Part shown: positions 44,359-63,639 of the stretch, one piece after another
Layout of the letters: the number at the start of each line of letters is the position of its first letter
How positions within the stretch are numbered: the stretch's first letter is position 1
Source: a virus
Virus record (IMG/VR): IMGVR_UViG_3300042197_003184
Coordinates: 64,001 to 128,000 of that record
Reading direction: 5' to 3' (one strand)
Length of the DNA: 64,000 bases
Program-made: the position numbers and the translations under genes
The notes under the pieces: generated by a model
What the model was told of the DNA's origin: nothing
What the model saw: the letters and a program-made list of their open reading frames with translations, nothing else
Databases searched by the model: none

Positions 44359-45213
44359 TTATCTAACGTAAATTTCTACTCTCATACTTCTATTGTATCT
44401 TTGCGTCCCAGCGGTATTGTATTTATCTCCAGCAGAATAATTCACTCCATAGCTCATACCAATTCCACCACTAGCATCACAACTATTAGCGTCATTTTCA
44501 CCATTCCACACAAATCCCCACCGAGCTGCTGCTGAACCAGCACCACTTACTCCATTATGTCCGCCAGAAGCCCCCTGAACATTAAAGCCATATTGTCTAT
44601 ATCCGTCTTGATAACTCCAAACATTACTATTAAAACCACCAAAATTAAATCCTGTGCCATAATATGTAGTGGTTTGAAATAGATTTAATAATGTAGATGC
44701 TGTTGGCATGGTTTGTTTCCATATCCATCCATATGCTGGTGCATTTATACTACCACCTGTCACATTTAAATCTGGCCATATAGCCATAACTTCAGTACCA
44801 ACAAAAGTATTAAATATATGATATTTAGCATCAGCATCATTTCTGGTAACATCTGTTGCATTTAGTATGTTATTAGTAGTCCAATAATTTGCACTATAAT
44901 TGAATGTTGTACCTCTCGTAGCTTTCATAGCCAACATCCATCCTCCTCCGTCTACCGCACTATCCATAATACAGTAAGTTGGGTTATTATTAATTATATA
45001 AGATCCATTGTCTGCTGATGGTATAATATTTTTAAGAGCAGAGGCACTATTCCAAGATGTTTCTGTTAAGTCCGTAAATCCTCCAGAATATGGAACTACA
45101 CCAGTAACTGCTGTGGAATAATTTCCTGTGCCTATTGGGTTTACGGCTGCCACTTGGAATGAGTAGGACAAATCGTTAGTTAGTCCTGTAAGTAGTTTAT
45201 TGAGTTTGGCCAT
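44359..45213 (-). CDS. Fibre protein: orphan FN3 C-half plus fibrinogen-like domain
   Basis: Starts LTGLTNDLSYSFQVAAVNPIGTGNYS; C-domain closely paralogous to 42944-44074; AGGAG RBS. Confidence 0.75.
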   Translation of the reverse strand: MAKLNKLLTGLTNDLSYSFQVAAVNPIGTGNYSTAVTGVVPYSGGFTDLTETSWNSASALKNIIPSADNGSYIINNNPTYCIMDSAVDGGGWMLAMKATRGTTFNYSANYWTTNNILNATDVTRNDADAKYHIFNTFVGTEVMAIWPDLNVTGGSINAPAYGWIWKQTMPTASTLLNLFQTTTYYGTGFNFGGFNSNVWSYQDGYRQYGFNVQGASGGHNGVSGAGSAAARWGFVWNGENDANSCDASGGIGMSYGVNYSAGDKYNTAGTQRYNRSMRVEIYVR

Positions 45214-45221
45214 ATATTCTC

Positions 45222-47102
45222 CTAGAATGTGATGCTCCCGCTGCCTGTGAACGTGTAGTATGTGTATCCGCCGCTCTCGGTGCGCGTTGGCGAGCCGGTT
45301 GTAGACGCAGCAGTCACGGAGCCAAGCGTTCGCAAAATCACAACGCCAGAACCGCCAGCGCCGCCGCTTCCAGCAACGCCACTGCTTGACCCACCACCAC
45401 CGCCGCCCGTGTTAGCGATTCCAGCCGAACCGGGATTGTTGGGATTCCCATTTCCGCCGGCACCGCCTCCGCCGAGTCCGGCTGCGCCGACCGTGCCGCC
45501 GTCCCACAGACCCCCAGAGCCACCGCCCGCGTAGTAGGTTCCGTTGAGCCACTGCGACCCGTTGCCACCAGCGCCGGAGTACCCAGTATTAGATGCACCA
45601 CTTGCAGCACCGCCAGCGGCACCTGCGCCACCACCGCCACCACCGTGTCCAGCGGTTGCGTCGGACGAACCTGCGCCGCCGCTGTTGCCCTGTCCTGACG
45701 TGCCGGTGCCAGCCGTTGTGGGATTTGTTCCAGCCCCGCCACCACCGGAGCCTCCGGTGCCGCCAGCGTAGGTTTGCCCGGTGCTTATGCGAGTGCCGCC
45801 GCCACCACCGCCGGCCGATGTAACCGTGAAGGCCGATGAGTTGCTTCCAGCAACACCAGCGCCGCCGATGTTTACCCCGCCAGCGCCACCAGAACCGACC
45901 GTTACCGTGTATTGAGTACCGGCCGTCAACGTCGTTGAGCCAGACCGATACCCGCCAGCGCCGCCGCCACCGCCGTGCGAGCCGCCGCCACCGCCACCGC
46001 CTGCTATGACGAGGTATTCAACCGTAATGGATCCAGATGAAGAAACAATTAACGTTGCAACACTGCTAATGAGGCTCACTCCTCCTGTTGATTTGACTAT
46101 ACAACGATAAATTTCTCCATTATTATCAGCTTCAGTTAAATTTGATAAAGATAATGTACTGCTAGTGGCTCCAGAAATATTAGAAAAAGATGAATTGCCT
46201 TTCTTTTTCTGCCACTGATAACTTAGTGTTGCTCCTAATGTAACACTAGCGGTTATGCTAAATGAAGCATTTCCAGCACTAACAGTTTGATTAGATGGTT
46301 GAGAGCTTATGGTAATAATTGGAGAAACTGGGAATGGTACAGGTGATGGTGTGAAGTTGGATGAATAACGGGCTATTCCTTTGGTTATTCTGATTTCGTC
46401 AATATATCCTGATAATAGATAGTTAGTATCATAATATCCTCCAACACAAAGATGTTGACCAGAACAGTTGCCACTAGCTGTGCCAGAAGCTGCAAGATTA
46501 CCATTGACAAATATTCTAATAATCCCAGACTGTCTACAGACCGCAATATGATACCACTGATTAGTATTGATCAACGATGCTGGTGTTGCGATGCTTGTTC
46601 CGGCAACATTTACTCTAAGAGCACCATTATTATAATTGATTATAATGCCGGTTGTATATGAGGTTGATAGTCCTCCGGACTGATTAGTGGTTTGGATCCA
46701 GCCTCTTTGGGTAGTAGAAGATACATCACTGGAATAAACCCAAGCTTCTACTGTAAAATCACCAGTATCAAAAGCAAAAGACGAACTACTAGCCGACAAA
46801 TAATCTCCAGACCCATCAAAATAAGCCGAAGACCCACCGAACTTGCTCTGATCTGACGATTGAGTAGCATCCCCCGATACTGTTAACGTATGATTATACG
46901 ACGAACTATCAACAAAAGAATTTCCAGTTCCGTCCATATGCATCAACAAACTCACATTACCAAAATAAGGATCTGGTACTGGCATAGCAGTATATAATGT
47001 ATTGTAAGCTCCTTGTCCAATACTATTAAGAGCAGCAACTCTAAAAATATAGTCGCCACTAGGAAGAGGAGAAATATTAGCTGTAGTATTAAGTGTTGTC
47101 AT
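45222..47102 (-). CDS. Fibre protein: orphan FN3 C-half, LamG, Ig-like and Gly-rich domains
   Basis: TAATG overlap sets the start at 47102; DYIFRVAALN, DPYFGNVSLLMHMD..GYIDEIRITKG, LSYQWQK, VEYLVIAGGGGGG. Confidence 0.8.
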   Translation of the reverse strand: MTTLNTTANISPLPSGDYIFRVAALNSIGQGAYNTLYTAMPVPDPYFGNVSLLMHMDGTGNSFVDSSSYNHTLTVSGDATQSSDQSKFGGSSAYFDGSGDYLSASSSSFAFDTGDFTVEAWVYSSDVSSTTQRGWIQTTNQSGGLSTSYTTGIIINYNNGALRVNVAGTSIATPASLINTNQWYHIAVCRQSGIIRIFVNGNLAASGTASGNCSGQHLCVGGYYDTNYLLSGYIDEIRITKGIARYSSNFTPSPVPFPVSPIITISSQPSNQTVSAGNASFSITASVTLGATLSYQWQKKKGNSSFSNISGATSSTLSLSNLTEADNNGEIYRCIVKSTGGVSLISSVATLIVSSSGSITVEYLVIAGGGGGGGSHGGGGGAGGYRSGSTTLTAGTQYTVTVGSGGAGGVNIGGAGVAGSNSSAFTVTSAGGGGGGTRISTGQTYAGGTGGSGGGGAGTNPTTAGTGTSGQGNSGGAGSSDATAGHGGGGGGAGAAGGAASGASNTGYSGAGGNGSQWLNGTYYAGGGSGGLWDGGTVGAAGLGGGGAGGNGNPNNPGSAGIANTGGGGGGSSSGVAGSGGAGGSGVVILRTLGSVTAASTTGSPTRTESGGYTYYTFTGSGSITF

Positions 47103-50100
47103 TATACTATACCCCATTTAGATATTAGATACGCTTCAACAAGGTCGGCTTCGGCGTCGCTGATTTTGCTGTTATAGGCGACGATCTCGCAGATGTACCC
47201 GCTCCACGGATATTCATTGTTATAGGGGTATGCGCCGATCTGCGTCGGTTGGTTTGTTGTTGTAATGCCAGAAACGTTAGTATCTGCCGTGCCGTCAACA
47301 CCATTTAGGCCCACAAATCCGTTGTCGGCACCCAGCCTGAGCGCGGCTAGGAATGTCGTGTTTGCAGAAATACTGCCCTTCGTTGGCGCGCGAAGACTCG
47401 GGGTCCACCAATGCGTTTCAACATTAGACCCGTTGATGCGAAGAAACTGATGGGCGCGTGGGTTGACATTAGGGTTGTCCTTGTTCACCAGCAAACCAAT
47501 GCTTGACGTGGATGTTTTTTGTGCGACAACAAACAGCGACACATGCCCAGACCCGTTTTCAATATTGCCACTGAACTCCAGCCCGTCGTTACTGCCGTCA
47601 AAAAACAGCGCATCCTTAGCGCTGACGACGCCCGCCTTTCGCAGCGGCCGATTTGCACTCGTCCCCTGCGTCGCGTGCCGCCCGTTCCCCGACTTGTCCT
47701 CCCACCGCGCCACGCTGCCATCGGCTGCGACGAGACTGCCCCCACTAGTCGAATCATAGAGCGTAGAAGCATCACTACTATCTAGCCACAACTGCAATCC
47801 TGATATTGAGCTGGGACTAAATGTTGGGGGTGTTGGCGGCGTTTCAATATGAGAAGTCCAATTATTTCCTCCATCATTACTATATTGTACTAAGTATCCA
47901 GTTATTGCTGGTAACACTAGTTCATTAGACCAATTTAATTGGACACCACTAACAGAAGTTTGGTTAATAGTAAAGTTTGGTGGAGGTGGAGGAACTTCTT
48001 GATAATCTATCCAATTATTACCACCGTCAGTAGAGTATCTAACATTATAAGAAATTGGCAATGAACGACCATCATCCGCTGGACTGTCCCAAGTTAATAA
48101 TGCTCTACTATCACCAGCAGCTCCTGTCAAGTTGTTGATGATTGAAGGCACAGTAGCCTCAGAAATATTAGGAGTAGCAGAAATTATAGAGGTATAGCTA
48201 CTTGAACCAACACTATTTACAGCTTTCATTCTGAAATAATATGTTGTTCCATTGGTTAGTCCCGTAACATAAATACCACTATTTGAAAATGCTAAAGTAT
48301 CAGTAAAAGTAGTCCAATTAGTTTGATCAGTACTATATTCTATAGAATACGTTGTGCTAGATGGCAATCCACCGCTATTTCCTTTTGTCCAAGATAGTGC
48401 TACTAGCTGATCTCCTGGATCAGCAGCAAAATTAGTTACTGATGATGGGACTATAGCGGTAAAGTCTATGTAAAAATAATTATTGTAACCGTCTTGAACT
48501 ACAGAATACTCGGATTCTGTTGTGGAACTTGACCCGTTAGTAATACCACTATACGGCCATAAGTCTTTTAATACTGTTCTAAAATATACTCTTCCACTCA
48601 GATCTACCAATGGAGTTAAATGATTATCAGTATTTCCGTATGATATATATTTAAGATTTATGTCGTTTGCAGAGTTTGTGTATGTCCATAATCCTTCGGC
48701 AGGATTTAATGAATATTGGAATTTTAGAGCCGTATCATTGCCTGTATACCAACTATTGTCTGGCGTTGGACCATATCCATTAGCGTATACACCTATATTA
48801 AGTCTTTCATTAGCATTAGCATACAAACCAAAATAAGATTTATTATTTATAGTTTCATATTGTCCGGTATGTCTATTATAATCATGATAGAACTCATAAT
48901 TATAATAATTGTAACTTAGATTGACTAATCTAACAGCTGGTGTTACCACAGTTGTTGAGTATGCAGAAGTTACTACGCATCTTACAGGATCTTTTCCTGC
49001 TGGACTATTATAAGAATAGTTATTTGCAGCATTAAATGATTGAGTATTAATAGTTAAACTTGATGATGTGGCACCATCAATATTTTGCCAACTTCTTCCA
49101 TAGTCTCCATAATAGTTATTAATGTCTGTATCGTATTTTTGCCACTGATATGTTAATGCAGAATTGTCCGGGATTGTCGCGGTAACAGTGAAAGTTGTGC
49201 TTTCATTATAGCTTATTACTCTATCGTTTTTCGGTGCTGAAGTTATTGTTAGTACTGGAGGAGGAGCAACCAGAGTCGAAGAGCTTGTTAGATAATTGCT
49301 ATATCCTCCACTATTTTGTGCTCTAACTCTGAAGATATAATTTTTATTATTTGGCAAGTTAATTACTCTAGCATTAGCAAATTCCGTACTGAACACAGCC
49401 GTAAATGCTTCTGTGTACAATGCCTCTCCAACGGTATATCTTAATTCGTCTAGTCTTCCTAGTATATAGTTGTTTGGATTATGAGATGCTGATTCTCCTC
49501 CCATAATAACAAGACCTCCGGATGAGAAATTGTCATTATTAGTATCTGCTATTTCTAATATCTTTGCTCCTTCGAGGAAAATTCTCATTGTTCCATTATT
49601 GCGACAAAAGGCTAAGTGTATTGGTTTCTTATTGTATTGACCGACACCGTAATTATTTGTATTACCTCTTAATGAACCAGATACATTGACACTATAAACG
49701 GAAGACCCATTAACATATTTATGAATTCTAACAGTATTCCAGTCAATATTTTGTATACCAAAATATGATCCAGATGAACCGTTGTGGGAGCCAAATAGTC
49801 TACCTATACCACCAACAGCATATGGTTCATCAAACATGACAAACATTTCAAGAGTGTAATTCCCTGTCCCGGGATTTAGATCACTAGAACTGTCAACTTT
49901 AACAATATAAGGAGAAGAGTATCCTGATGTTCTATTGTATTGTATGTCTAAACATCCTGTTCCAAATTTTTGATATGTACCAGCAGATGATGCTCCTCCA
50001 ATGAATGCTGGATTGTTATTAGTATTCCAAAGAACATTTCTATTATAAAGAGAATAATCTTTAACTTTAGCATTACCTCTAATATCCCCCTTATTAAAGT

Positions 50101-51874
50101 GGAGCAATAGTCTGGTTGGAGATGACGAAACCGATGTCCATGATTGGGGATCTGTATCTTCTGTATATTGTAGATCATAAGATACTAATACTGATTTGTC
50201 GCTTGGAGGAGCAGAGAAGTCTATTTCTGCCGAAGCATCTCTACCATAAGCTGTTATACTAGGTGGAGCTTCTGGAGCAGTTATGGTTGGGGCTATATTT
50301 GAGAATGGTAGGGTTGGAGGTGTGAATATTGTGCCATCCGGATATCTGCATACTCCGCGAGTAATACGAATATCATCTAGATAACCTGCATAAAATGCAG
50401 TGTTATGGTATCTTCCAATATTTAAAGGACCAGTACCAGTAGCTATTCTACCACTAGAAGATCTTGTTGTTATTTGAGTACCATTCTGATAAGTTCTTAA
50501 AGTATTGCCTTGTCGAACAACAGCATAATGAACCCAATTATTTAAACTAATAGCGCCCATATCCATTTCGCTAGCAATATTCCAATTGTCATAGTTAGGA
50601 TCTTGACAAAAATAAGCCCGAACTCTGTTATTAGCTGCATAGCCTATTAAAAATGGGTTATATCCTTGATCGGTATTTGTGCGACACATTACTGATCTAC
50701 CACTAGTACTATCAGTTCTATATTCCCAATACTCTATTGTGAAATCTTCAGCACCAAAATCAAATCCAGGATGATCCGGAATCGTCACATAGTCTCCACT
50801 ACCATCAAAATACATACTTGATCCACCAAATTTATTTCGTGCAATACTGATTTTGGCATCGCCTTGAGCTGTGGAAGTTTTGGGTAAGTACGATGAGTCT
50901 ACAATGTTTGTACTATTATGACTTTCGTCAAAATGCAATAACAGCGAAGTGCTGTAGAAATATGGGTCTGGGTTGGTGTCAACTGCTGGTTCTGCTGGAA
51001 CTAGATTTGATTCGCTAACATATGAACCAATACCAGTATAATTAACAGCACCCACTCTAACGCTATATGTTGTGCCGTTTGTGAGTCCCGTAACACTAAT
51101 AGCAGGAACAACACTGGGAGAGTGAGCAAAATCCGTCCAGTTAGTGCCGTCTGTTGAATATTGGATACTATAATCAGTTATTATTCCACCATTATCCTCA
51201 GCGGGTGCTGTCCAAATCATATTAATTTTTTGTACCAATGGACCAGCGATAAGCTCTGTTGGAGCATTGGGCGGGGTGACAGGAGTTCCAGTAGAAGGAA
51301 ATGGAGCATGTAGTGTTTTGATATCAAAATTAGATGTATATTTGGCAGATCCTATGCCTTTGGTGATTCTGATTTCGTCCATAAAGCCACTAAAGGTTTC
51401 ACTACCATTAGTACGTCCCCCAATGAATAATGACTTGCTTGCTCCTAGATCACCACCATTACTAATAGACAATGATGCTGTACCATTAATAAAAACCTTA
51501 ACGGTGCTGCCGCTTCTAACAAGAGCCAAATGACTCCAAGAGTTTAAAGGAACATTGCCAGGATTCCAATTATATTGAGAGTTATTAATATATAGATTAT
51601 CACCACCAGTACCCATTCTCCATAGTATACCGCTTGTATAAGATCCTATTTCAAATAATGTTCTCCAATTATTATTATCATAAGCGTAAACCCATAATTC
51701 TACTGTAAAATCACCGGTTCCGAAACCAAAATCAGTATTATCAGCAACTGAAGCATAAGCCCCATTATTCAAGTATAAAGAAGCTCCACCAAATCGACTT
51801 CTTAGGGAGCTGATAGCTGCTCCATTATTTAGTGTGACGGTTTTAGGTTTTGGTGACGAATCTATTATACTCAT
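47102..51874 (-). CDS. 1590-aa fibre/adhesin protein with LamG, FN3 and Ig domains
   Basis: Repeated DFT.E.W, W.H.A..R and DEIRITKG LamG motifs; FN3 W/Y patterns; C-terminal LQLWLD..W.DKSGNG domain. Confidence 0.85.
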   Translation of the reverse strand: MSIIDSSPKPKTVTLNNGAAISSLRSRFGGASLYLNNGAYASVADNTDFGFGTGDFTVELWVYAYDNNNWRTLFEIGSYTSGILWRMGTGGDNLYINNSQYNWNPGNVPLNSWSHLALVRSGSTVKVFINGTASLSISNGGDLGASKSLFIGGRTNGSETFSGFMDEIRITKGIGSAKYTSNFDIKTLHAPFPSTGTPVTPPNAPTELIAGPLVQKINMIWTAPAEDNGGIITDYSIQYSTDGTNWTDFAHSPSVVPAISVTGLTNGTTYSVRVGAVNYTGIGSYVSESNLVPAEPAVDTNPDPYFYSTSLLLHFDESHNSTNIVDSSYLPKTSTAQGDAKISIARNKFGGSSMYFDGSGDYVTIPDHPGFDFGAEDFTIEYWEYRTDSTSGRSVMCRTNTDQGYNPFLIGYAANNRVRAYFCQDPNYDNWNIASEMDMGAISLNNWVHYAVVRQGNTLRTYQNGTQITTRSSSGRIATGTGPLNIGRYHNTAFYAGYLDDIRITRGVCRYPDGTIFTPPTLPFSNIAPTITAPEAPPSITAYGRDASAEIDFSAPPSDKSVLVSYDLQYTEDTDPQSWTSVSSSPTRLLLHFNKGDIRGNAKVKDYSLYNRNVLWNTNNNPAFIGGASSAGTYQKFGTGCLDIQYNRTSGYSSPYIVKVDSSSDLNPGTGNYTLEMFVMFDEPYAVGGIGRLFGSHNGSSGSYFGIQNIDWNTVRIHKYVNGSSVYSVNVSGSLRGNTNNYGVGQYNKKPIHLAFCRNNGTMRIFLEGAKILEIADTNNDNFSSGGLVIMGGESASHNPNNYILGRLDELRYTVGEALYTEAFTAVFSTEFANARVINLPNNKNYIFRVRAQNSGGYSNYLTSSSTLVAPPPVLTITSAPKNDRVISYNESTTFTVTATIPDNSALTYQWQKYDTDINNYYGDYGRSWQNIDGATSSSLTINTQSFNAANNYSYNSPAGKDPVRCVVTSAYSTTVVTPAVRLVNLSYNYYNYEFYHDYNRHTGQYETINNKSYFGLYANANERLNIGVYANGYGPTPDNSWYTGNDTALKFQYSLNPAEGLWTYTNSANDINLKYISYGNTDNHLTPLVDLSGRVYFRTVLKDLWPYSGITNGSSSTTESEYSVVQDGYNNYFYIDFTAIVPSSVTNFAADPGDQLVALSWTKGNSGGLPSSTTYSIEYSTDQTNWTTFTDTLAFSNSGIYVTGLTNGTTYYFRMKAVNSVGSSSYTSIISATPNISEATVPSIINNLTGAAGDSRALLTWDSPADDGRSLPISYNVRYSTDGGNNWIDYQEVPPPPPNFTINQTSVSGVQLNWSNELVLPAITGYLVQYSNDGGNNWTSHIETPPTPPTFSPSSISGLQLWLDSSDASTLYDSTSGGSLVAADGSVARWEDKSGNGRHATQGTSANRPLRKAGVVSAKDALFFDGSNDGLEFSGNIENGSGHVSLFVVAQKTSTSSIGLLVNKDNPNVNPRAHQFLRINGSNVETHWWTPSLRAPTKGSISANTTFLAALRLGADNGFVGLNGVDGTADTNVSGITTTNQPTQIGAYPYNNEYPWSGYICEIVAYNSKISDAEADLVEAYLISKWGIV

Positions 51875-51889
51875 TTTATTATGGCCCTA

Positions 51890-55447: not shown

Positions 55448-55459
55448 TATAATCTTTCC

Positions 55460-55822
55460 TTATGTTGTTAGTTCTACCCAATTTTGAGACTCTTCATCCC
55501 ACTTGTAAACCTTGCCGTCTGTTGGGTGGTCTACTGGGGCTTTCCATCGACAACTGTTAGTATCCAAAGTCCATGAAGCAAAAGGCTGGGGAGCAACAAA
55601 AGCATCCAAACCCTCATTATAACTATACCCTATACCAGCATAATTTTTCCTAATTTTGCCGTTGTACGATGTTTGTTTCCATCTATTATGACCAAATAAA
55701 GAGGCTAAGAAATTTACTCCTTTGCTCTCACTTTCTTCTCCATTATCAATTAATTCATTATTGTTAACAACAATCACTTGAGTTACAATATTATTGTCAT
55801 CTAATTCAGCAAAATGGGCCAT
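55460..55822 (-). CDS. Small fibre-associated protein (possible assembly chaperone)
   Basis: MAHFAELD..IVTQVIVV..WKQTSYN..RKNYAGIGY..F..PQPF.SW..Y.WDE pattern, commonly found next to Gly-rich fibre genes. Confidence 0.7.
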   Translation of the reverse strand: MAHFAELDDNNIVTQVIVVNNNELIDNGEESESKGVNFLASLFGHNRWKQTSYNGKIRKNYAGIGYSYNEGLDAFVAPQPFASWTLDTNSCRWKAPVDHPTDGKVYKWDEESQNWVELTT

Positions 55823-55835
55823 TTTATTCTCCTTC

Positions 55836-58800
55836 TTAGAATGTTATAGAACCTGTTCCTGTGAAAATATAAAGTTTACCACCGTCACTGTTAGAATCAG
55901 GGAATTGGGAATCCGGTACGCTTATAGAGGATCCTGTATAATTCCTGCCACTGCCGATAGTAAATCTTACATCATCTATATAGTAGTTGGGTGATGACCA
56001 GCCATAACCAGTAAAATCAAAATTTGCTCCTATAAACCCATACGGTAAACTAGCTAGATTATAGTTGTTGTTATCTGTGGTACTATCCACTAGTATTCCG
56101 TCCACATAGGTTCTAGTAGTACCAGATGTGCGAGCAATAGCAATATAAACCCATTGAGATAAAGGCAGGGTAGCGATCCATTGTCTACCATTAGATGGTA
56201 AATTTAAAGATAGTCTTCTGCTCTGATCTATTTCTACATTAAATCCTGTGACACCCGGATATCGAAAATCGAAAAGAGCACTATTATCAGATTGAGACCC
56301 AGCAATAAATACCCAGCTTTCCAGTGTGAAATCTTGAGTTCCTATGTTAGACATAGAGCCTATTCTTAAATAAGATCCATTACCTAATAATGCTGCGCTT
56401 TTACCTCCCCATTTAGATTGAGTCGATGACTGTGTAGCAGAACCGAATGCCGTAATAGTCTTTGGATTTGGTGAGACATCTGTAAATACTGATGCATTGT
56501 CGTTCATATGTAATAATATTGATACATCTTTAAAATAAAGATCACTAGCTGGACTAATAATAGGGGATCCGGTTGTTGATGTTGCTGCTACAGAAGATTT
56601 GATTACTACTACGCCAGAGGCACCTGAGCCAGCAGCGTTGTTGCCGGAACCTCCAGCGCCTCCACCTCCGCCGGTATTTGCGACGGCTGCTGTTCCGGTA
56701 CTTCCGGCTCCTCCTGTGCCGCCACCCCCACTACCGCCAGAACCAGCCGTTGCGCTGCCGGTATTGGTACCTCCACCACCACCACCTGCGTATGTTGTTC
56801 CGTACCACGACCTACCATTGCCTCCAGAACCACCTACAGAGCTGGTTCCATTGCTGCCAGCCGTCTCTGCCCCGCCACCGCCACCTCCTCCATATGCTGG
56901 GGAATTATAGTTTGACGATCCCCCGTTATTTCCGTATCCTATAAATGGTCCGGAACTGGTTTGTGTAGCGGTGCCGCCAACAGATCCTTCGTTATTTGAT
57001 CCTCCGCCAGAACCTCCGTTTTTGCCGTTGGCATTAGGAGAACATCCGCCACCACCACCACCATTCGCCGTATGACCAGCAAACGTAGAATCAGATCCGG
57101 TATTGCCAGCATTGCTGGATACTGCTGTTCCACCAGCACCAACAGAAACAATGTAGGTTTCTCCCACAGTAAGAGATAAAGCAGTAGCTTCTAACAAACC
57201 TCCAGCGCCGCCGCCACCGCCTCCACCATTACCAGAACCGCCAGCGCCGCCTCCTGCCACAACTAAGGCTTCAACAGAAACGTCTGGAATTGGTAGAGTT
57301 ACTGACTTAGCTTTCCAACCTCCTTGGCCATTACTATTAATGGCCGCCACTCTAAAATAGTAGTTTCCATCAGCTAGTCCAGAAATTGTAACACTATTGG
57401 TGCTAGATGTTCCGTCGTTTACGGTAGTCCAATTAGATTCGTTTTCTGTACGGTATTGAATCACATAATCAGTAGCTCCGTCTATAGAGTCCCATGATAG
57501 GGTCGCCTCTCCTGGAGTGCTAGAGCTGGCAGTTATATTGGTTGGAGGAGTAGGGGGAGATGCTGATGGAAAAGTTATGGATCCAGTACCAGTAAACATA
57601 TAAATATTGTATAAACCATCAGCTGATACTGTTGGGCTTCCTGTTGTTGAAGTTGCGGTGGCTTTTGTTCTTAGAATAACAGCACCAGAACCTCCAGTTC
57701 CTCCATAGTTATTAGAATTGTAATGAGAGCCTCCACCACCACCTCCTCCAGTATTAGCTCCACCATTTCCACCAGGAGTATTAGTTTGAGAATTTGTACT
57801 ACCTCCACCTCCAGATGCTCCATTATTTATGCCAGCTCCACCAACCGTTGTACCAACAGCCCCGCCACCTCCACCACCAATACCTCCGTCTCCTCCGGTA
57901 GTAGTATAACCAGAACCACCGCCGCCACCTGCCCAGTAATAAAGAGTTCCTAATATTCTGCTAAGTACTCCAGGACCGCCGTGGCCTCTTACGCTACCAT
58001 TTCCAATACCAGCACCTCCGGCTCCACCACCGCCACCAGGATACCAGTGTGGTCCGCTGCCAGCACCATCATATCCTTGTTTGGCAGTACCGCTTCCAGG
58101 CAAGCCACCATAACTACTACCGTTTTGACGACCACCTGATCCACCACCACCACAACCTCCACTATTTGCATTCCATCCGTTACCGTTATGTTGACTAGCC
58201 CCGTAACCTCCGCCTAGTGCTGTAACCAGAGCGTTGCCTATTACGGAAATAATACTGTTACCTCCATTGGTGCCTGACCCACCACTACCAGCAGGTGCTC
58301 CAGACCCACCAGCACCCACAACCACATTCAGAGTACTAACATTTGCTAAATACATAGGAGATTCTGCTGTTGATCCTCCGCCAGAAGTTGCTCCCTCAAC
58401 GTTGGTGATCAAACCACCGGCACCACCGCCACCACCCATATCGTTACCTCCGCCTCCTCCACCAGCGACCACTAGATATTCAACAGAAATTCCTGTTAAT
58501 GGCAGAGCTAGATCTATAGAAGTCCAAGAACTTTGTAGATCTCCATTGGTACCAGCTATTCTAAAAGTATATGTTCCATTGGGTAAATTATTGATAGTGG
58601 TACTATTATTAGATGATACTCCGTCATTAACGGTTGTCCAAACTATTCCTCCGTCTGTGCTGTACTGAATAATATAGTCTGATGCTCCTGGAGGTAGTGT
58701 GGGTGCTGTCCAAGACAGCGTTAACGACCCACTTTGTGGTTGAGATGGTACAATATTAGTTGGTGCAGGTAGCGGGCCTGAGTACGTTGATGTTGAGGGG

Positions 58801-59765
58801 CCGTTAATGGCATAAATAGTTTTGGGGTTAGGAGACAAATCTCTAAAAGGATTAGAAGGATTAGGATATGCCGAAGTGGGTAATGTAATATTACGAGCAA
58901 CACCGTTGGTGAATCTGAATTCATCTATCTGACCATCAAAACCACCAACACTAGCCACCCTACCAACACTAAATCCATTCTGATTAAAATTAGTAGAAGA
59001 GAAAATAGTACTATTACTTACTGTTTGTTCTACTCCATCAATAAATATTTTTATAGTACCGCTTTGTCTAAGTATGGCTAAGTGATACCACGTATTTGTT
59101 GAAGCAGACCACGGGGAGGTGCAATAATTACTCGTGGCGTGTTGTCCAACCATCAGATTACCAGAACTATACTGAATATACCATTTGCCACCATCTGCAC
59201 CATTAGGGTCTGATGTTGGATTACAAATAGGGTTTGCACTATTGATAGATCTAAACTTAACAAATAACTCAACAGTAAAATCTCCTGTCCCAACACTAAA
59301 ATCATTAGACGAATCAAAAGTTAGATAATTAGACCCATTAAAAGATAAAGAGCCTGTGCCAAATCTACTGTCGGATATTGTTTGAACTGGTACGGCCCCG
59401 TTAGTATAAACATTTTTGTTACCAAGAGAAGAGTCTGTTAAAGCTATACCATCGCCATGTAATAACAATTTTGTTTCTAAAGAATAGGGATCATCATTAG
59501 GACCGTATTGAGTTGTTCCCAGGATAAAAGCATCATTGCCATAATATGAGTCTCCATTAATTACCTCATCCATATTTAGCAATAATTCTACATTATGATA
59601 ATTGTCGTCTATAGCAAATAAAGACGGCGTTGCTAATACATAGTCTGTAAATGGGCCAACGCCTATAGAATTTACTGCTGCTACTCTAACTCGATAAGTA
59701 ACATCGTTAGTTAAGCCGGTAATAGTGTAACTTCTATTAGCACTATTGGTATTAATAGTTGGCAT
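55836..59765 (-). CDS. 1309-aa fibre/adhesin protein with FN3, LamG and two Gly-rich domains
   Basis: FN3 C-half start, LamG motifs, two VE.LVVAGGG.GG...FTGTGSITF domains. Confidence 0.85.
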   Translation of the reverse strand: MPTINTNSANRSYTITGLTNDVTYRVRVAAVNSIGVGPFTDYVLATPSLFAIDDNYHNVELLLNMDEVINGDSYYGNDAFILGTTQYGPNDDPYSLETKLLLHGDGIALTDSSLGNKNVYTNGAVPVQTISDSRFGTGSLSFNGSNYLTFDSSNDFSVGTGDFTVELFVKFRSINSANPICNPTSDPNGADGGKWYIQYSSGNLMVGQHATSNYCTSPWSASTNTWYHLAILRQSGTIKIFIDGVEQTVSNSTIFSSTNFNQNGFSVGRVASVGGFDGQIDEFRFTNGVARNITLPTSAYPNPSNPFRDLSPNPKTIYAINGPSTSTYSGPLPAPTNIVPSQPQSGSLTLSWTAPTLPPGASDYIIQYSTDGGIVWTTVNDGVSSNNSTTINNLPNGTYTFRIAGTNGDLQSSWTSIDLALPLTGISVEYLVVAGGGGGGNDMGGGGGAGGLITNVEGATSGGGSTAESPMYLANVSTLNVVVGAGGSGAPAGSGGSGTNGGNSIISVIGNALVTALGGGYGASQHNGNGWNANSGGCGGGGSGGRQNGSSYGGLPGSGTAKQGYDGAGSGPHWYPGGGGGAGGAGIGNGSVRGHGGPGVLSRILGTLYYWAGGGGGSGYTTTGGDGGIGGGGGGAVGTTVGGAGINNGASGGGGSTNSQTNTPGGNGGANTGGGGGGGSHYNSNNYGGTGGSGAVILRTKATATSTTGSPTVSADGLYNIYMFTGTGSITFPSASPPTPPTNITASSSTPGEATLSWDSIDGATDYVIQYRTENESNWTTVNDGTSSTNSVTISGLADGNYYFRVAAINSNGQGGWKAKSVTLPIPDVSVEALVVAGGGAGGSGNGGGGGGGAGGLLEATALSLTVGETYIVSVGAGGTAVSSNAGNTGSDSTFAGHTANGGGGGGCSPNANGKNGGSGGGSNNEGSVGGTATQTSSGPFIGYGNNGGSSNYNSPAYGGGGGGGAETAGSNGTSSVGGSGGNGRSWYGTTYAGGGGGGTNTGSATAGSGGSGGGGTGGAGSTGTAAVANTGGGGGAGGSGNNAAGSGASGVVVIKSSVAATSTTGSPIISPASDLYFKDVSILLHMNDNASVFTDVSPNPKTITAFGSATQSSTQSKWGGKSAALLGNGSYLRIGSMSNIGTQDFTLESWVFIAGSQSDNSALFDFRYPGVTGFNVEIDQSRRLSLNLPSNGRQWIATLPLSQWVYIAIARTSGTTRTYVDGILVDSTTDNNNYNLASLPYGFIGANFDFTGYGWSSPNYYIDDVRFTIGSGRNYTGSSISVPDSQFPDSNSDGGKLYIFTGTGSITF

Positions 59766-59810
59766 ATTTATCCTAAAAAGAAAGCGTATGACTAAACTTA
59801 GTTATTTATG

Positions 59811-59818
59811 CATACACC
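59811..59818 (-). promoter_or_regulatory. GGTGTATG variant of the intergenic motif
   Basis: 2 nt after the recombinase stop, about 46 nt upstream of the 59765 ATG. Confidence 0.45.
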
Positions 59819-59820
59819 TT

Positions 59821-60678
59821 TTATGATATTAACTGCGGAGTTTGTGGAATTCTAGTAGTAATTTGACCATAATCAATATAGCTTTTTTCTGCTAATCCAC
59901 TAGATCGGTGTCCTAGGTGAAATTTAGCCATACCCGGCTGGTTTATTTCTATATGGGTAGCTCCGCTACGTCTTAAGAATTTACTGGAGCCTTTTATATT
60001 GCAGAATTTAAGAAAATCATACATAATAATTTGAGCCCTTCTTTTACCACACAACCATCCTAATATTCTATTGTCGTCAGAAGATTTGTATGATAATAAT
60101 TCATTAATACTATCTACGCAAGCGGAGCTTAAGACCTTAGTCATAGGATCGCCAGTTTTGCTCATGGTCCAGCGTAATATGTTGTTATCAATATGGTCTA
60201 TTGTAAAAGTTAATAAGTCTCCAAAACGAGCACCACTTTCATAACCTAATAATAACCATGCTCTAATAAAACATCCTAATGGAACTCCTTTTTTACTAAT
60301 TTTATCAAATTCATAACTTTTATCTATCAACATTTTACACTCATCAATCGTCCAAGCTTTTGTTGGGGCTTTTCTAGCTTTAATAGACACAATATTTTTG
60401 GGAGCAAATTTTACCAAATTATTTTCATAAGCATAATTCCATAAGGTTAACAAAATGGTACGCTCTGATTTAACAGTAATAGAACTAGCTTTAGTTAGAC
60501 GATCTTTTAAATAGTTATTAACAACATCTTTTAAGATATATTTACATCTTTTAGCAATTCTATAAACATTGCTCTCATATTCTTTAGACACTATATGATT
60601 ATTCATATAATGCTTAACAATACTAACAAAAGTTACATTCTTAGTTTTAGTCTTGGTCTTGGTCCTGGTCTTAGTCAT
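59821..60678 (-). CDS. Tyrosine recombinase/integrase
   Basis: ESGARFGDL (R), SKTG (K), KFLRRSGAT (box II, usual His replaced by Lys), LGH, SYID (Y); AAGGAGG RBS. Confidence 0.88.
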   Translation of the reverse strand: MTKTRTKTKTKTKNVTFVSIVKHYMNNHIVSKEYESNVYRIAKRCKYILKDVVNNYLKDRLTKASSITVKSERTILLTLWNYAYENNLVKFAPKNIVSIKARKAPTKAWTIDECKMLIDKSYEFDKISKKGVPLGCFIRAWLLLGYESGARFGDLLTFTIDHIDNNILRWTMSKTGDPMTKVLSSACVDSINELLSYKSSDDNRILGWLCGKRRAQIIMYDFLKFCNIKGSSKFLRRSGATHIEINQPGMAKFHLGHRSSGLAEKSYIDYGQITTRIPQTPQLIS

Positions 60679-60699
60679 ATTAATATCCTCCTTAGAGGT

Positions 60700-60748
60700 A
60701 TTATAAGACTTTGTAACGAATAGTCAGCAACGCTTTTATTATTCGTTA
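60700..60748 (-). promoter_or_regulatory. Sigma70-like promoter of the recombinase overlapped by a 9-bp inverted repeat
   Basis: TATAAT at 60705-60700 with CTGACT 16 nt upstream; TAACGAATA (60714-60722) N17 TATTCGTTA (60740-60748). Confidence 0.55.
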
Positions 60749-60766
60749 TCTTTGTCGTATAGCGCA

Positions 60767-61777
60767 CTAGGCGCCAGGGAACGCTTCCGTGGGCGGCGTG
60801 AACGTCGTGCCGTTGGGATAGCGACACGCGGCAGTGAGTCGCACATCGTCAAAGCTATGGGTCTGCCACAGAACCAGATTGGACATCGCAATATTTGTGA
60901 ACTCACCAGAGTGTATCTGCTGACCGTTGTAATACCACCTGCCGGTGCTGCCCTGTCGCACGAACGCAAAGTGATACCACTGTCCGTTCGTTGCGGCGGA
61001 GGTGGACACGTATCCGCCATCAAAGTTTTCCACTTGGAAACCACTGGTCGTTACTTGTAACTCAAGAAACAGCCCGGAGCCTATATTGCCCAGCAAAACC
61101 GCCCTGTTGCCGACGCCGCCGTTGAATTTTTTGACCCAGAACTCCAACGTGAAATCTGTGGACGCCGGAGCCGTGACTCCGTAGGTAAGTTGAGTGTTTG
61201 AAGAGAGAGTTGCCGCATTTCCAAATTTACCTGCGGCATACGAGATATTGCTGTAACCCAGATTGGTATATGACGGCAGGCGACTGTCTGGCCCAATGTC
61301 GTTCGGAGTATTGTCAAATGGAACGAGCAGCAGAACGTCTCCCCACAGAGGGTCGCCGGGCGAAACGGTCAGCGTGGCGCTGCTGCTCGTCACGCTCTCG
61401 GCACCACCCGTTGCGCTGACCACCACTCGGTACACATCGCCGTCGTCATCGGCGTGCGTCAGGCCGGACAGCGCGAGAGTGCTACTTGTCGCGCCGCCCA
61501 CGTTAGTGAACGAACCAGAACCGCTTTCTTGCTTCTGCCACTGGTAAGACAGGGTGGCATTTTGCGTGACCGTCGCCGAAACGCTAAACGCGGCACTGCC
61601 GCTAGAGGCTGTTTGATTGCCGGGCTGGCTGGTGATGGTGATAGCCGGTGCCACTGGCCACGCTGCCGCCCGTTTCTGCCGCTCGGCCGTCCGCAAGTCC
61701 CAGATGCCGCTGGCGACACTCGTCGTCGGCCCATCCGGTCGCGGCCCGATGTACGAACCGTTCGCTCGCAGACTCAT
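60767..61777 (-). CDS. High-GC fibre-type protein with Ig-like and LamG domains
   Basis: SGIWDL N-terminus, LSYQWQK Ig, DFTLEFW..WYHFAFVR..DDVRLT..RYPNGTTFTPP. Confidence 0.8.
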   Translation of the reverse strand: MSLRANGSYIGPRPDGPTTSVASGIWDLRTAERQKRAAAWPVAPAITITSQPGNQTASSGSAAFSVSATVTQNATLSYQWQKQESGSGSFTNVGGATSSTLALSGLTHADDDGDVYRVVVSATGGAESVTSSSATLTVSPGDPLWGDVLLLVPFDNTPNDIGPDSRLPSYTNLGYSNISYAAGKFGNAATLSSNTQLTYGVTAPASTDFTLEFWVKKFNGGVGNRAVLLGNIGSGLFLELQVTTSGFQVENFDGGYVSTSAATNGQWYHFAFVRQGSTGRWYYNGQQIHSGEFTNIAMSNLVLWQTHSFDDVRLTAACRYPNGTTFTPPTEAFPGA

Positions 61778-62235
61778 TCCGCACCTCCCGCGCTCAACGC
61801 CGCCCGAGCCGCACCATACGCGAGCATCAGCGGCTCAAACTCCGCGAACGTCATGGTGTGCCGCTCGCCCGCCATGTCGGTGACGATGACCGGCTGCGAC
61901 ACGCCCAACTCGGCCGCCCGAGCCGCCAGCACATAGAGGCCGGTGAGCAACGCCACGTCGTCAGGCTGCCACGCGAGCCGCCAGCCGCCTGGCGTCTCCC
62001 AGCCTGCCTCAAACGGCGACGGCTCCGGTGGTGGAGGCGGTGGGGGAAACAGGGCGTCTAGGTCGTCCTGCGTCAGCGTGGACGCGGCCCAGCCGGTCGC
62101 CTCCAGCACTGCGGCATCCAGCGACCACTGCGCCGGGTCGGTGCGGGTGCTGCCATCAGGCATCCGCACCCGGAAGGGCAAGGCCAGGGCGGCTACGCCG
62201 TTACGTCGCCAGCAGGGATCGCCGAGAGCAGGCAT
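61774..62235 (-). CDS. High-GC small fibre-associated protein (DUF4376-like C-terminus)
   Basis: 153-aa ORF with ATGA overlap to the next gene; LMLAYGAAR end. Confidence 0.6.
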   Translation of the reverse strand: MPALGDPCWRRNGVAALALPFRVRMPDGSTRTDPAQWSLDAAVLEATGWAASTLTQDDLDALFPPPPPPPEPSPFEAGWETPGGWRLAWQPDDVALLTGLYVLAARAAELGVSQPVIVTDMAGERHTMTFAEFEPLMLAYGAARAALSAGGAE

Positions 62236-62302
62236 GGAAGTTCTCTATTGTTGTGAGGTAATGTACTATCAAACTTATACGGTGATAGTGTCCGTTAATT
62301 TT

Positions 62303-62310
62303 TATACACC
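62303..62310 (-). promoter_or_regulatory. GGTGTATA intergenic motif
   Basis: 4 nt after the 62315 stop, upstream of 62235. Confidence 0.5.
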
Positions 62311-62314
62311 AGAA

Positions 62315-62680
62315 TCAAGAGATCTCTTCATACACTATTATAGCGCTAACATCTCCACTAGCGCTGCATTGTAGATACAACGAATCTCCTTCCATCATGT
62401 ATATGTTGCTATCTTTAGTTAGAGGTAGTAAACTAGCGTCTGCTGGAACACTAACGGTTTTAGCTAAATAGCCCGTATTATTTTGAGCATTTGTCATATA
62501 GACACTTATATCAGCAGCATTAGCTCCATCAATATTTGAACAATAAATACTACTAAGTCTTAGTGTTTTGCCACTATCTGCCGAATTGGTAAGGTATGAT
62601 GTTGCTGATGCGGGAACATCTGAAACCAAAACATTTTTTCCTTCTACTTTAATTGGATTATTTAAATTTGGTATGGCCAT
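62315..62680 (-). CDS. Small putative virion structural protein
   Basis: SGK..LSSIYCSNIDG..A.IS..LAKTVSVPADASL..IY..EGDSL..YEEIS pattern typical of small proteins in phage fibre modules. Confidence 0.65.
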   Translation of the reverse strand: MAIPNLNNPIKVEGKNVLVSDVPASATSYLTNSADSGKTLRLSSIYCSNIDGANAADISVYMTNAQNNTGYLAKTVSVPADASLLPLTKDSNIYMMEGDSLYLQCSASGDVSAIIVYEEIS

Positions 62681-62719
62681 GATTTTCTCCAGACTTTAGA
62701 TATAAGATTGATAACTATA

Positions 62720-62727
62720 TATACACA
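62720..62727 (-). promoter_or_regulatory. TGTGTATA variant of the intergenic motif
   Basis: About 40 nt upstream of the 62680 ATG. Confidence 0.4.
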
Positions 62728-62733
62728 TTTTAT

Positions 62734-63639
62734 TTAATGCCAGCTATATATTTTGTTTTTATCATATAGTACAGATTGAACCACTACAAATGACCCGGAA
62801 CTTGGGGTTACCGAAGGTGTTACGGTATTTGTTGGGGTAACTGTTGGTGTGGGGGTGTTTGTAGGGGTTTGTGTTGGGGTTGGTGTGGGGGTAGGCGTTG
62901 GCGTAGCACTAGGATTCATCTCATAATCAACAACATAATCAATAATATCTAAACGACCATTACTAGCTGGAGAATTCCAAGATAATAGTATTTCTTGATT
63001 ACCTCCATAGGCCGATAGATTTTGTGGTGCGCTTGGCGCCCCGTATCTTGTAGAGGACGGAGTAACAGTTTGTGTGGGTGTTTTTGTTGGTGTTGGTGAA
63101 CGAGTTGGAGTAACTGTTGGAGTGGGAGATCGAGTCGGGGTAACTGTTGGTGTTGCGGTAGGTGTTGGGGTAGCAGTTGGAGTGCCTGTGGGCGTTGGAG
63201 TAGCACTTAAAGCAAGGTCTCCGCTAACAATCCAGGTGTTATTGCTAATCTTTGACAATACGGCCTTACTATATACTGCTCGTAAAGTCCACCCAGAAGC
63301 AGAATTAATAACTATACCTTCTGCTCCAGTCACATTAACAATACCCTGACCTAATCTAACCAATTCTACAGTTGTGCCTACTGGTAGAGACTGATTAGTA
63401 TCGTTCGGAATAGTAACCAATACCGGTTCCGTATTGGTAAATGTTACTATGGATTTAGCATCAGTTTGAACCAGATTATAATCGGTAGTTGTGGTGTTTT
63501 TAACGCTCTTTAAACTAATCCAATCTGATAATTGTTCTAAACTAATTTTATAGGTAGAATTAATGCTACTAATAGGAAATATGTAACTTCCTGATACTAC
63601 CGGGGCTGGTTGTAGTTCACTAATTCTAATATTGGCCAT
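62734..63639 (-). CDS. Fibre anchor-like protein with Thr-Pro linkers and an orphan FN3 N-half
   Basis: [10 protein letters not shown]-terminus paralogous to 42944-44074; [28 protein letters not shown] followed directly by TP repeats. Confidence 0.75.

Follow-up and report, generated by a model that had tools for sequence, protein, structure and literature searches.

FN3 and LamG domains cut at fibre gene boundaries in a viral genome: candidate plug-and-socket joints for a branched adhesin

Why should the boundaries between neighbouring fibre genes fall inside protein domains? The question is raised by an array of six genes in a stretch of 64,000 nucleotides (nt), hereafter the window, which comprises bases 64001-128000 of the 139,964-bp virus record IMGVR_UViG_3300042197_003184, estimated to be 94% complete. 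The six genes, named here by residue count (g301 has 301 residues, etc.) and located by window positions, are intact minus-strand open reading frames (ORFs), and fibronectin type III (FN3) and laminin G (LamG) domains are split between them, one protein carrying the beginning of a domain and a downstream protein opening with the remainder. An earlier reading of the bare sequence, here called the original prediction, had proposed that such split domains link the products into a fibre. The Pfam domains of the array proteins (Laminin_G_3, fn3, Gly_rich_2 and Ig-like domains), together with the match of g301 residues 47-142 to PHROGs annotated as minor tail protein or tail fibre, make a fibre or adhesin role plausible. 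In our view the best explanation of the array, with a probability of roughly 0.68, is that the cut domains are plug-and-socket joints which assemble a branched adhesin by fold complementation in trans. Binding in trans, its stoichiometry and the location of the product on the virion are what we infer from the observations given below (coordinates in Table 1).

An FN3 hidden Markov model (HMM) was built from five intact copies in the array, and every array protein was mapped with it. The complete copies (two in g1309, one in g1185 and two in g1590) match Pfam fn3 (PF00041) with E-values of 6e-25 to 1e-17 and the local HMM over positions 1-102, and ten further copies are halves that match only profile positions ~3-60 or ~57-100. 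Five of these are N-halves with strands A-C' (~3-60; g301 197-242, g1185 760-808, g1590 531-586, 1239-1293 and 1290-1348) and five are C-halves with strands E-G (~57-100; g1309 5-48, g1185 1032-1066, g1590 832-867, g626 4-41 and g284 8-37). Read in gene order they give ( ) ( ) ( ) ( ( ) ), which is balanced, and the partners are complementary without overlap, as in profile positions 3-47 with 57-100, or 3-61 with 61-99. FN3 core positions are kept in all halves. The downstream proteins have no other N-terminal domain and begin inside a fold, and what the mapping found at the termini are true partial domains, not domains complete within each protein, including the splits predicted across g301/g1309, g1590/g626 and g1590/g284. 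These three pairs span gene boundaries; in two further pairs both halves belong to a single protein and flank a complete LamG. The plugs of g626 and g284 match the HMM with E-values of 3.6e-7 and 1.4e-6 (the latter at positions 67-96), and the sole match of g284 in a sequence search of solved structures is titin FN3, to the plug. A representative-library search with g1309 1-90 was dominated by multi-FN3 proteins, and only its own cluster matches from residue 1; a word-indexed search with g284 1-50 gave three matches, the query being too short for the method.

These data suggest a joint in which the gene boundary cuts a beta-sandwich domain whose two pieces would fold only together and so hold the subunits. 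For FN3 the cut would lie in the C'-E loop, the upstream socket consisting of strands A-B-C-C', often followed by linker or cargo and then the stop, and the downstream plug of strands E-F-G. For LamG the cut would come after the first one or two strands, the upstream protein giving the head strand or strands and the downstream protein the rest of the jelly roll.

Thirteen further sequences, viral or metagenomic and derived from samples of JGI, ENA and Logan, show the same cuts (L009/L010, L125 and L148-L158). L009, a 237,915-bp viral contig of which L010 is a second copy, was found by a search with g120, a small gene of the array region; eleven orthologues (L148-L158), for which the genomic context was fetched, came from a word-indexed search with g1590 1-200, and L125 from another scan. 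The array proteins of L009 are 62-80% identical to those of this genome (63% for g301 and r399, 65% for g1309 and r1093, 71% for g1185 and r951), and the gene boundaries lie at the same places. In L009 a g301-like protein carries the FN3 N-half and the next gene opens with the C-half, with nothing between; the g1185-like protein ends ..LLLHLDSN and the g1590-like protein starts MSIIDSS 15 nt on; and the g1590-like protein ends exactly after one N-half, the outer socket, the next gene opening with the g284-type C-half. The possibility that the junctions are artefact or decay, i.e. an assembly chimera through FN3/LamG repeats, sequencing errors or recent pseudogenes, has in its favour that the array is repeat-rich and the record a metagenome-derived viral contig, but it has to face the same cuts in other samples, and ORFs of 1185-1590 codons that are intact with a ratio of nonsynonymous to synonymous substitution (dN/dS) of 0.16-0.23. 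Decay and misassembly are thus disfavoured, as had been predicted from the intact ORFs, and we regard this as the least probable of the alternatives considered.

The two sides of a joint are gained and lost together. When FN3 N-halves in the tail of the g1590 orthologue were counted against downstream genes opening with an FN3 C-half, socket number equalled plug number in 14/14 sequences: two of each in this genome and L148, one of each in L009, L125, L149, L151, L153, L156, L157 and L158, and none of either in L150, L152, L154 and L155. At least four changes of state are needed on a maximum-likelihood tree (first 1120 residues, 13 of the 14). In L148 two tandem N-halves are followed by the stop, a g626-like gene starting MTTPNTT.. 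at the same position as g626, and a gene with the g284 plug. This gene order and the relatives with only the outer pair support the nested pairing of the original prediction, inner socket with g626 and outer socket with g284. At joint 1 (g301/g1309) both sides are present in seven sequences and both are absent in two (L151 and L153). In L009, L149, L150, L152, L155 and L156 socket 1 lies at the end of the gene that immediately precedes the plug gene, the domain being split with a spacer of only 18-54 nt; in this genome four genes lie between the halves. Since joint 1 is split in relatives without interposed genes, the split preceded the insertion. Insertion of a mobile element was considered as the cause of the splits and rejected, because only joint 1 here has interposed genes and six relatives are split without them. 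Likewise, a shufflon-like rearrangement by the g285 integrase, one of the four interposed genes, was not upheld: only coding repeats were found (Gly-rich, PT-rich and LamG/FN3 paralogy), with no junction-specific direct or inverted repeat, and relatives without the integrase keep the splits. Among ~140 loci around homologues of g120, the g284 tip or the g301 domain, split FN3 at gene termini was seen only in the L009/L010/L125 group, which indicates that the split would be specific to this lineage and not general to phages with these domains.

The LamG domains were mapped with an HMM built from seven intact array copies; Laminin_G_3 (PF13385) has 14 matches in the genome, 13 of them above the family cut-off. 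The pieces are again complementary, profile positions ~4-22 with 24-222 at the g1185/g1590 boundary and ~4-48 with 59-218 between g1309 and g1185. At the former the predicted split was recovered as such, the last residues of g1185 covering ~4-22 and g1590 running from 24 onward. Compared with L009, the terminal strand of g1185 is 91% identical (dN/dS 0.03) and the first 23 residues of g1590 are 87% identical. The g1590 orthologues form ~19 clusters at 58-91% identity, of which 18 start MSI[IV]D[SF]S and the 19th (P0267) starts later, and the protein upstream ends NKTR[IL]LLHLD[ST]N, sometimes with one more residue, wherever both sides are readable; runs of N disrupt the call of the upstream gene in L157 and L158, and the junction DNA reads the same. 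No fused g1185-g1590 form of this LamG was found among g1590 orthologues of up to 2783 residues. Despite saturation of synonymous sites elsewhere, the junction DNA itself (51800-51960) shares 92% of its 161 nt with L009, and the first 23 codons of g1590 have a synonymous divergence (pS) of 0.36 against 0.62 for the gene; this conservation could reflect a constraint on initiation or coupling, or a recent gene conversion.

This junction is also the place where a single polypeptide made by recoding (read-through, frameshift or bypass), with the domains complete in cis, would be expected if such a product existed, since g1185 and g1590 are in frame here and in most relatives. The evidence makes such recoding very improbable. 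Two to three consecutive stops would have to be passed; the relatives have one to three stops, then AAGG or AGGG, then ATG, and in L150 and L155 the two ORFs are not in frame with each other, so that read-through is not a conserved feature. The other junctions are a TAATG overlap, gaps of 8, 35 or 49-55 nt, or 3.1 kb with four genes. There is no suppressor tRNA in the window, and an Rfam scan of 42-64 kb (E <=0.1) gave no match, introns and known recoding elements included. Every downstream gene has its own ATG preceded by an AGGAG- or AAGG-like motif; within the array the spacers are -1 to 15 nt, with AGGAG-, AAGG- or AGGG-like motifs. Intact ORFs with their own ATG, spacers resembling ribosome-binding sites and the TAATG overlap had all been described in the original prediction and were all confirmed. 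A promoter and terminator scan gave counts near shuffle expectation, with no intergenic terminators at the joints. Separate initiation, on the other hand, is conserved.

The joint between g1309 and g1185 is the one for which unsplit forms exist. In six relatives (L149, L150, L151, L152, L153 and L156) it is in cis: in L149, L150, L152 and L156 a single protein holds the g1309-type FN3 C-half, an orphan first strand (..YYYDNTLLMHFDD..), a complete LamG, and the g1185 orthologue as far as ..LLHLDSN, the body of the complete LamG being 43-48% identical to the headless N-terminus of g1185. The cis protein of L151 and L153 has a different N-terminus without the g1309-type plug. In this genome, L009, L154 and L155 the same parts are separated by the g1309 body and g120. 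Comparison of the sequences thus identifies g1309 1-88 and g1185 as counterparts of two pieces of one protein elsewhere, as a reading of the halves as brackets predicts. From the cis forms it follows that the main path takes in no more of g1309 than residues 1-88, the remaining body of ~1220 residues being a side branch. The linear chain of the original prediction has to be corrected in this respect, g1185 docking on the N-terminal heads of g1309; five genes lying between the members of the chain (g121, g153, g336 and g285; g120) had gone unmentioned.

Of the two LamG head and body pairs proposed between these proteins, one was mapped. The orphan head at g1309 49-88 spans profile positions ~4-48, its HMM match (4-31) being weak (E 0.08), and it is conserved in L009, L154 and L155. 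The second pair is ambiguous: the second "headless" LamG of g1185, here LamG-A, is composed of residues 178-260, 425-471 and 699-754, is interrupted by an insert and a complete LamG, and is without its first strand only. Since LamG-A opens at profile position 24-25 in all cis proteins, the orphan first strand most likely belongs to it, as a LamG nested in a LamG. The balance of brackets claimed earlier is seen for FN3, where all halves are paired, while the count of LamG first strands does not close. The insert in LamG-A (g1185 261-424, 54176-54667) is a Cys-rich segment of ~165 residues without a family match, and relatives carry an insert at the same place.

Is the conservation of the halves a property of the protein or of the DNA? 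Between this genome and L009 synonymous sites are saturated (pS ~0.63), and the dN/dS of the half-domains (0.03-0.21) is as low as or lower than that of intact domains. Socket 1 is 67% identical (dN/dS 0.21) and plug 1 85% (0.03), the outer socket 70% (0.20), and the two halves of the g1185 nest 94% and 83% (0.03 and 0.07). From substitution patterns, then, the halves are under purifying selection at the protein level, in line with the earlier claim that they are not decaying. It could be argued that the half-domains are mainly recombination boundaries for fibre cassettes and that this is their sole function, the proteins being independent and the halves unfolded linkers. Mosaic cargo with foreign GC content at third codon positions (GC3) after the joints would be expected in that case, as would the same plug with different cargo, the 92% identity of the g1185|g1590 junction DNA, and the observation that L125 and L009 are 81% identical in the g1590 orthologue and 95-98% identical in the two genes after the joint. 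However, synonymous sites in most halves have diverged (pS 0.54-0.76) and the amino acids are kept, which places the constraint on the protein; the FN3 core positions are retained in all halves; shared homology alone does not require the 14/14 match of sockets and plugs; and the downstream proteins would be left without a means of attachment. As a sole function this is improbable, although a role as recombination boundary probably coexists with docking.

The proposed folds were also modelled. For g1590 525-870 the AlphaFold2 model has a mean predicted local distance difference test (pLDDT) of 71.5 and a predicted template modelling (TM) score (pTM) of 0.73. The solved FN3 5x83_C aligns across both halves (94/95 residues, root mean square deviation 2.0, Z 13.1, range 7..346) and ConA-like jelly rolls align to 62..306 (Z 16.9), so that the model predicts the single-chain nest to fold as proposed, one FN3 around an inserted LamG. 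To imitate the joint in trans, the g1185|g1590 junction was folded as a read-through product with Q in place of both stops; the segment encoded by g1185 formed a strand (residues 117-121), and the alignment of complete jelly rolls spans the junction, beginning at 111-116 and reaching 317 (5ho0_A, Z 21.3; 5hon_B, 192/206 residues). Joint 1 was the only pair submitted to complex prediction, with g301 190-301 and g1309 1-90, each with an alignment of 19 half-domains, in three runs and with three controls. It scored 0.48 and the best control 0.00, the runs having at least 81% contact agreement and a partner pLDDT of at least 59. The mark of 0.48 is reached by 58/80 solved complexes and 2/110 mismatched pairs, and scores of 0.60 or less comprise only 7 of those 80 complexes together with both passing mismatches; moreover, the calibration was made without custom alignments and the likeness to FN3 may explain the pass. 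The pairing predicted for joint 1 is thus weakly supported, and the result adds little beyond the comparative evidence.

Several points weigh against trans complementation. The only complex prediction is a weak pass, on FN3, a fold well known to the model. The lineages are related and the proteins mosaic, and the 14 counts are not independent trials. In L154 the gene upstream of a plug-first g1309 orthologue has no FN3 N-half in its last 147 residues, where the contig ends. One head of first and second strand faces two g1185 LamG bodies that are each without the first strand, and the orphan first strand also occurs in relatives whose next LamG is complete. The conserved half-domain DNA could, as said, also serve recombination. 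Some of these points have been counted for another role at the protein level, a homo-oligomeric strand swap in a trimer, binding of a chaperone (g120/g89) or cleavage, with no pairing between neighbouring halves: the unbalanced count of LamG first strands and the weak support from complex prediction agree with it, and small conserved proteins (g120, g89 and g121) accompany the array and its relatives. Such a role leaves the joint gain and loss of sockets and plugs, the exact profile complementarity and the cis forms uniting the same pieces unexplained, and we rate it as doubtful, somewhat more so than the recombination account.

The joints also behave as module boundaries. The g284-type plug is 61-65% identical to that of r314 of L009, and the rest of the protein is unrelated. 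Its cargo is a fibrinogen-like tip here and in L156, and Gly-rich in L009, L148, L149, L151, L153 and L158. The tip of g284 is fibrinogen-C-like only by Atlas leads (TM 0.86 to viral clusters with PF00147 in 12-26% of their members), and a Pfam scan of the g284/g376 tip gave no match. The carrier of socket 1 is a g301-like protein in most relatives and a 1081-residue protein with four LamG domains in L152. As in g1590, a cargo domain lies between N-half and stop in L153, L156, L157, L158 and r399 of L009. L148 has no counterpart of the LamG-like cargo of g1590, its protein ending directly behind the socket. GC3 is ~0.2 along g1590, both sockets included, and 0.5-0.8 in this cargo and in the Gly-rich domain of g626 (45225-46010), the Gly-rich domains of g1309 having native GC3. 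This suggests that the LamG-like module of g1590 and the Gly-rich module of g626 were recently acquired from a GC-richer source. The varied cargo on one plug and the foreign GC3 after the sockets show that cargo is exchanged and that the connectors stay native. Taken together, the half-domains complement each other, are inherited jointly, can be moved between proteins and have a function at the protein level.

Table 1. Positions of the array genes, half-domains and neighbouring genes in the window
Feature	Position	Strand	Evidence or remark
g301: N-terminal domain (residues 1-145, also in g376), FN3 N-half between two PT-rich linkers, short tail	62734-63639	-	
Socket 1, putative: FN3 N-half, strands A-B-C-C', g301 residues 197-242	62914-63051	-	HMM 3-47, E 1.6e-8
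g121, g153, g336 (Ig + LamG), g285 (tyrosine integrase)	59821-62680	-	Between socket 1 and plug 1; outside joint
g1309: FN3 C-half, orphan LamG head, body of LamG, FN3, Gly-rich, FN3, Gly-rich, LamG	55836-59765	-	Pfam and local HMMs
Plug 1, putative: FN3 C-half, strands E-F-G, g1309 residues 1-48	59622-59765	-	HMM 57-100, E 1e-9
Orphan LamG head: g1309 residues 49-88, first strand ..VELLLNMDE.. and second-strand-like segment	59502-59621	-	Weak HMM match
g120: small conserved protein, phrog_7759	55460-55822	-	Between g1309 and g1185
g1185: headless LamG; interrupted LamG-A holding nested complete LamG; FN3[LamG] nest; FN3; C-terminal orphan LamG strand	51890-55447	-	
Headless LamG: g1185 residues 1-171, without profile positions 1-58	54935-55447	-	HMM 59-218, E 1.8e-32
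FN3 N-half / complete LamG / FN3 C-half nest: g1185 residues 760-1066	52250-53170	-	Local HMMs
Orphan first LamG strand: g1185 residues 1164-1185, ..NKTRLLLHLDSN	51893-51958	-	Profile ~4-22
Stop-stop-spacer cassette: TAA TAG and 12 nt before the g1590 ATG	51875-51892	-	In frame; loop between first and second LamG strands
g1590: headless LamG, FN3, LamG, FN3[LamG] nest, Ig-like region, FN3, two tandem FN3 N-halves, C-terminal LamG-like cargo	47102-51874	-	
Headless LamG: g1590 residues 1-191, opens at profile position 24	51302-51874	-	HMM
FN3 N-half / LamG / FN3 C-half nest: g1590 residues 531-867	49274-50284	-	HMM and AlphaFold2 model
Outer socket, putative: FN3a N-half, g1590 residues 1239-1293, proposed cognate g284	47996-48160	-	HMM 4-57, E 2.7e-9
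Inner socket, putative: FN3b N-half, g1590 residues 1294-1348, proposed cognate g626	47831-47995	-	HMM 3-61, E 2e-9
LamG-like cargo after inner socket: g1590 residues ~1349-1590	47105-47830	-	Laminin_G_3 21-149, E 4.7e-6, below family cut-off
g626: FN3b C-half (residues 1-41, 46980-47102), LamG, Ig-like domain, Gly-rich domain	45222-47102	-	Start overlaps g1590 stop (TAATG)
g284: FN3a C-half (residues 1-40, 45094-45213) and fibrinogen-C-like tip domain	44359-45213	-	
g376: unsplit paralogue, g301-like N-terminal domain joined directly to g284-like tip	42944-44074	-	

If the joints work as proposed, the g301 socket would receive the g1309 plug; the LamG head or heads at g1309 49-88 would receive the headless N-terminus of g1185, the g1309 body hanging as a side branch; the last strand of g1185 would complete the first LamG of g1590; and the tandem sockets of g1590 would receive g626 (inner) and g284 (outer), with the LamG-like cargo on the inner socket. 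The origin may have been a single-chain nest with a LamG in the C'-E loop of an FN3, an arrangement still present twice in the array, the chain of which was probably broken by cassettes of stop, Shine-Dalgarno-like motif and start, or by insertion of cassettes. The joints would double as module boundaries at which distal cargo is exchanged. The unsplit paralogue g376 comes after g284 together with g89; its N-terminal domain is 33% identical to that of g301, and its tip DNA is 74-93% identical in stretches to that of g284 (repeats D3 and D11). Because g376 joins a g301-like N-terminal domain to a g284-like tip, the two ends of the proposed chain thus seem to match the two halves of a simple fibre. 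We are further inclined, less firmly than for the joints themselves, to think that such joints characterise a widespread lineage of large phages, with contigs of 74-487 kb in many samples. Its adhesins would be tree-shaped, exceed 5000 residues and be assembled from giant proteins translated separately, split FN3 and LamG domains being the only connectors; the joints would nest like brackets, bear side cargo and serve as universal adapters, with tips swapped through recombination at a gene boundary.

The adhesin cluster extends past the six genes. Upstream of g301 on the same strand (genome 127689-139264, past the window end) lie ORFs of 884, 1134 and 1456 residues, followed by a 372-residue protein with an RCC1-like repeat pattern; the 884- and 1134-residue ORFs have Ig-like repeats and are homologous to r864 and r933 of L009. 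Downstream of the array are genes for dCMP deaminase and ribonucleotide reductase. A megablast search of 44-64 kb against phage records gave no match. Among the interposed genes at 59821-62235, g285 is an integrase by its match to phrog_1 (E 3.6e-16) and has a GC content of 0.31, g153 is without a family (GC 0.71, GC3 0.81), and g336 has a GC content of 0.59 and a GC3 of 0.67, the GC3 of the array being ~0.25. The protein g120 has at least 592 matching stretches in viral contigs and is found wherever the g1309 body is found; in several phages that differ otherwise, homologues of g121 (62315-62680) occur 1-2.5 kb upstream of those of g120, and g121 and g89 are alike at their N-termini. The three may be small fibre-associated proteins or chaperones. 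The g301 protein is without a C-terminal domain of ~100 residues that its L009 orthologue has, and no remnant of this domain was found in the genome. In L153 (JGI 3300071516), a 487,183-bp contig of phage or host, the array adjoins genes for radical-SAM, glycosyltransferase and methyltransferase proteins. Elsewhere in the window, ARAGORN reports a tRNA-Pro (anticodon AGG) at 14894-14974 on the minus strand, inside a 971-codon plus-strand ORF (12102-15017), and the region at 12-16 kb has a strong GC skew (-0.32 to -0.35) and a GC content above its surroundings.

How does the proposed assembly compare with known systems? The literature that was searched yielded no account of strand complementation, donor strands or split domains in the tail fibres of phages. 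In chaperone-usher pili an incomplete beta-sandwich is completed by a strand of the neighbouring subunit, which gives a non-covalent and very stable fibre, and strand exchange is also used in type V pili. The proposed joint from g1185 to g1590, where one terminal strand would complete the jelly roll of the next protein, would be of this kind. It differs in that the fold is a LamG/ConA-like jelly roll or FN3 and not the pilin Ig fold, in that the strand donor is the C-terminus of the preceding subunit, and in that the FN3 joints would exchange a half domain of three or four strands and not a single strand; furthermore, its giant subunits are heterologous and follow one another in a fixed order instead of forming a homopolymer. 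No PapD- or usher-type families came up when the array was scanned with Pfam.

A second comparison is with the RTX adhesins, in which Graham et al. (2024, Proteins 92:933) are said to have described split domains with projecting ligand-binding domains. In these adhesins an axial beta-sandwich domain is interrupted by an inserted, sideways-projecting ligand-binding domain (PMC12077191; PMC10865825; PMC13059738). The same nested split-domain architecture is seen in g1590 531-867 and g1185 760-1066, and the order of socket, cargo and stop followed by start and plug would follow this design, with a break in the chain behind the cargo. The split domain of RTX adhesins lies in one polypeptide, whereas three FN3 and two or three LamG splits of the array fall at gene boundaries and are encoded by a phage. 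RTX or haemolysin-type calcium-binding repeats and a secretion signal were absent from Pfam scans of the array proteins.

Among phages, branched receptor-binding complexes are formed by the tailspikes TSP1-4 of Ackermannviridae such as CBA120, by G7C gp63.1-gp66 and by the adapters of K1-5 (reviewed in PMC11721090). As in these complexes, receptor-binding proteins from neighbouring genes would attach to one another and not each to the baseplate, and distal modules are exchangeable. In those phages complete and dedicated docking domains bind each other; in the array the proposed joint is one domain on two proteins. No T4 gp10-like or XD-type docking families were reported by Pfam or PHROGs for the scanned proteins, although remote homologues may escape such scans. 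Should the halves pair, they would represent a new route by which phages assemble and diversify receptor-binding organelles, through mutual completion of folds and not through docking domains. Pairing would also account for the assembly of very large branched adhesins out of pieces that are translated separately, and would explain how tips are exchanged on a constant connector, fibrinogen-like or Gly-rich on the same plug.

The topoisomerase subunits gp39 and gp60 of T4 are encoded by a gene in pieces. In phage Aeh1, NrdA is split by insertion of a homing endonuclease (PMC3045599). As in these cases, one ancestral gene would have become two genes whose products reassemble, and here four genes, an integrase and two of foreign composition among them, lie between the halves of joint 1, while the g1309 body and g120 split joint 2 (g1309 to g1185), which resembles a cassette insertion when set against the cis relatives. 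The cuts of the array are different in that they recur, nest and hit structural adhesin domains, most with a spacer of 1-55 nt and no mobile element. For annotation, this is a warning that partial-domain matches at the ends of phage fibre genes need not be pseudogenes or misassemblies.

Finally, fragment complementation of FN3 has reportedly been engineered (Dutta, Batori, Koide and Koide, 2005, are named for it, Protein Sci 14:2838), and in split domains of the SpyTag/SpyCatcher type two fragments rebuild a small beta-sandwich. The proposed joints would resemble these laboratory constructs, whose fragments reconstitute the fold with high affinity. The split in the array would be natural, conserved and reused, and nothing suggests a covalent isopeptide bond. 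If the plug-and-socket explanation is true, protein engineers would gain natural split FN3 and LamG pairs, possibly orthogonal, and phage engineers a ready-made plug for new tips, in all a natural modular equivalent of engineered split-domain tags in which tips swap without redesign of the interface. Overall, by analogy, the array would work like donor-strand complementation and like the split domains of RTX adhesins carried out in trans, as a member of neither family.

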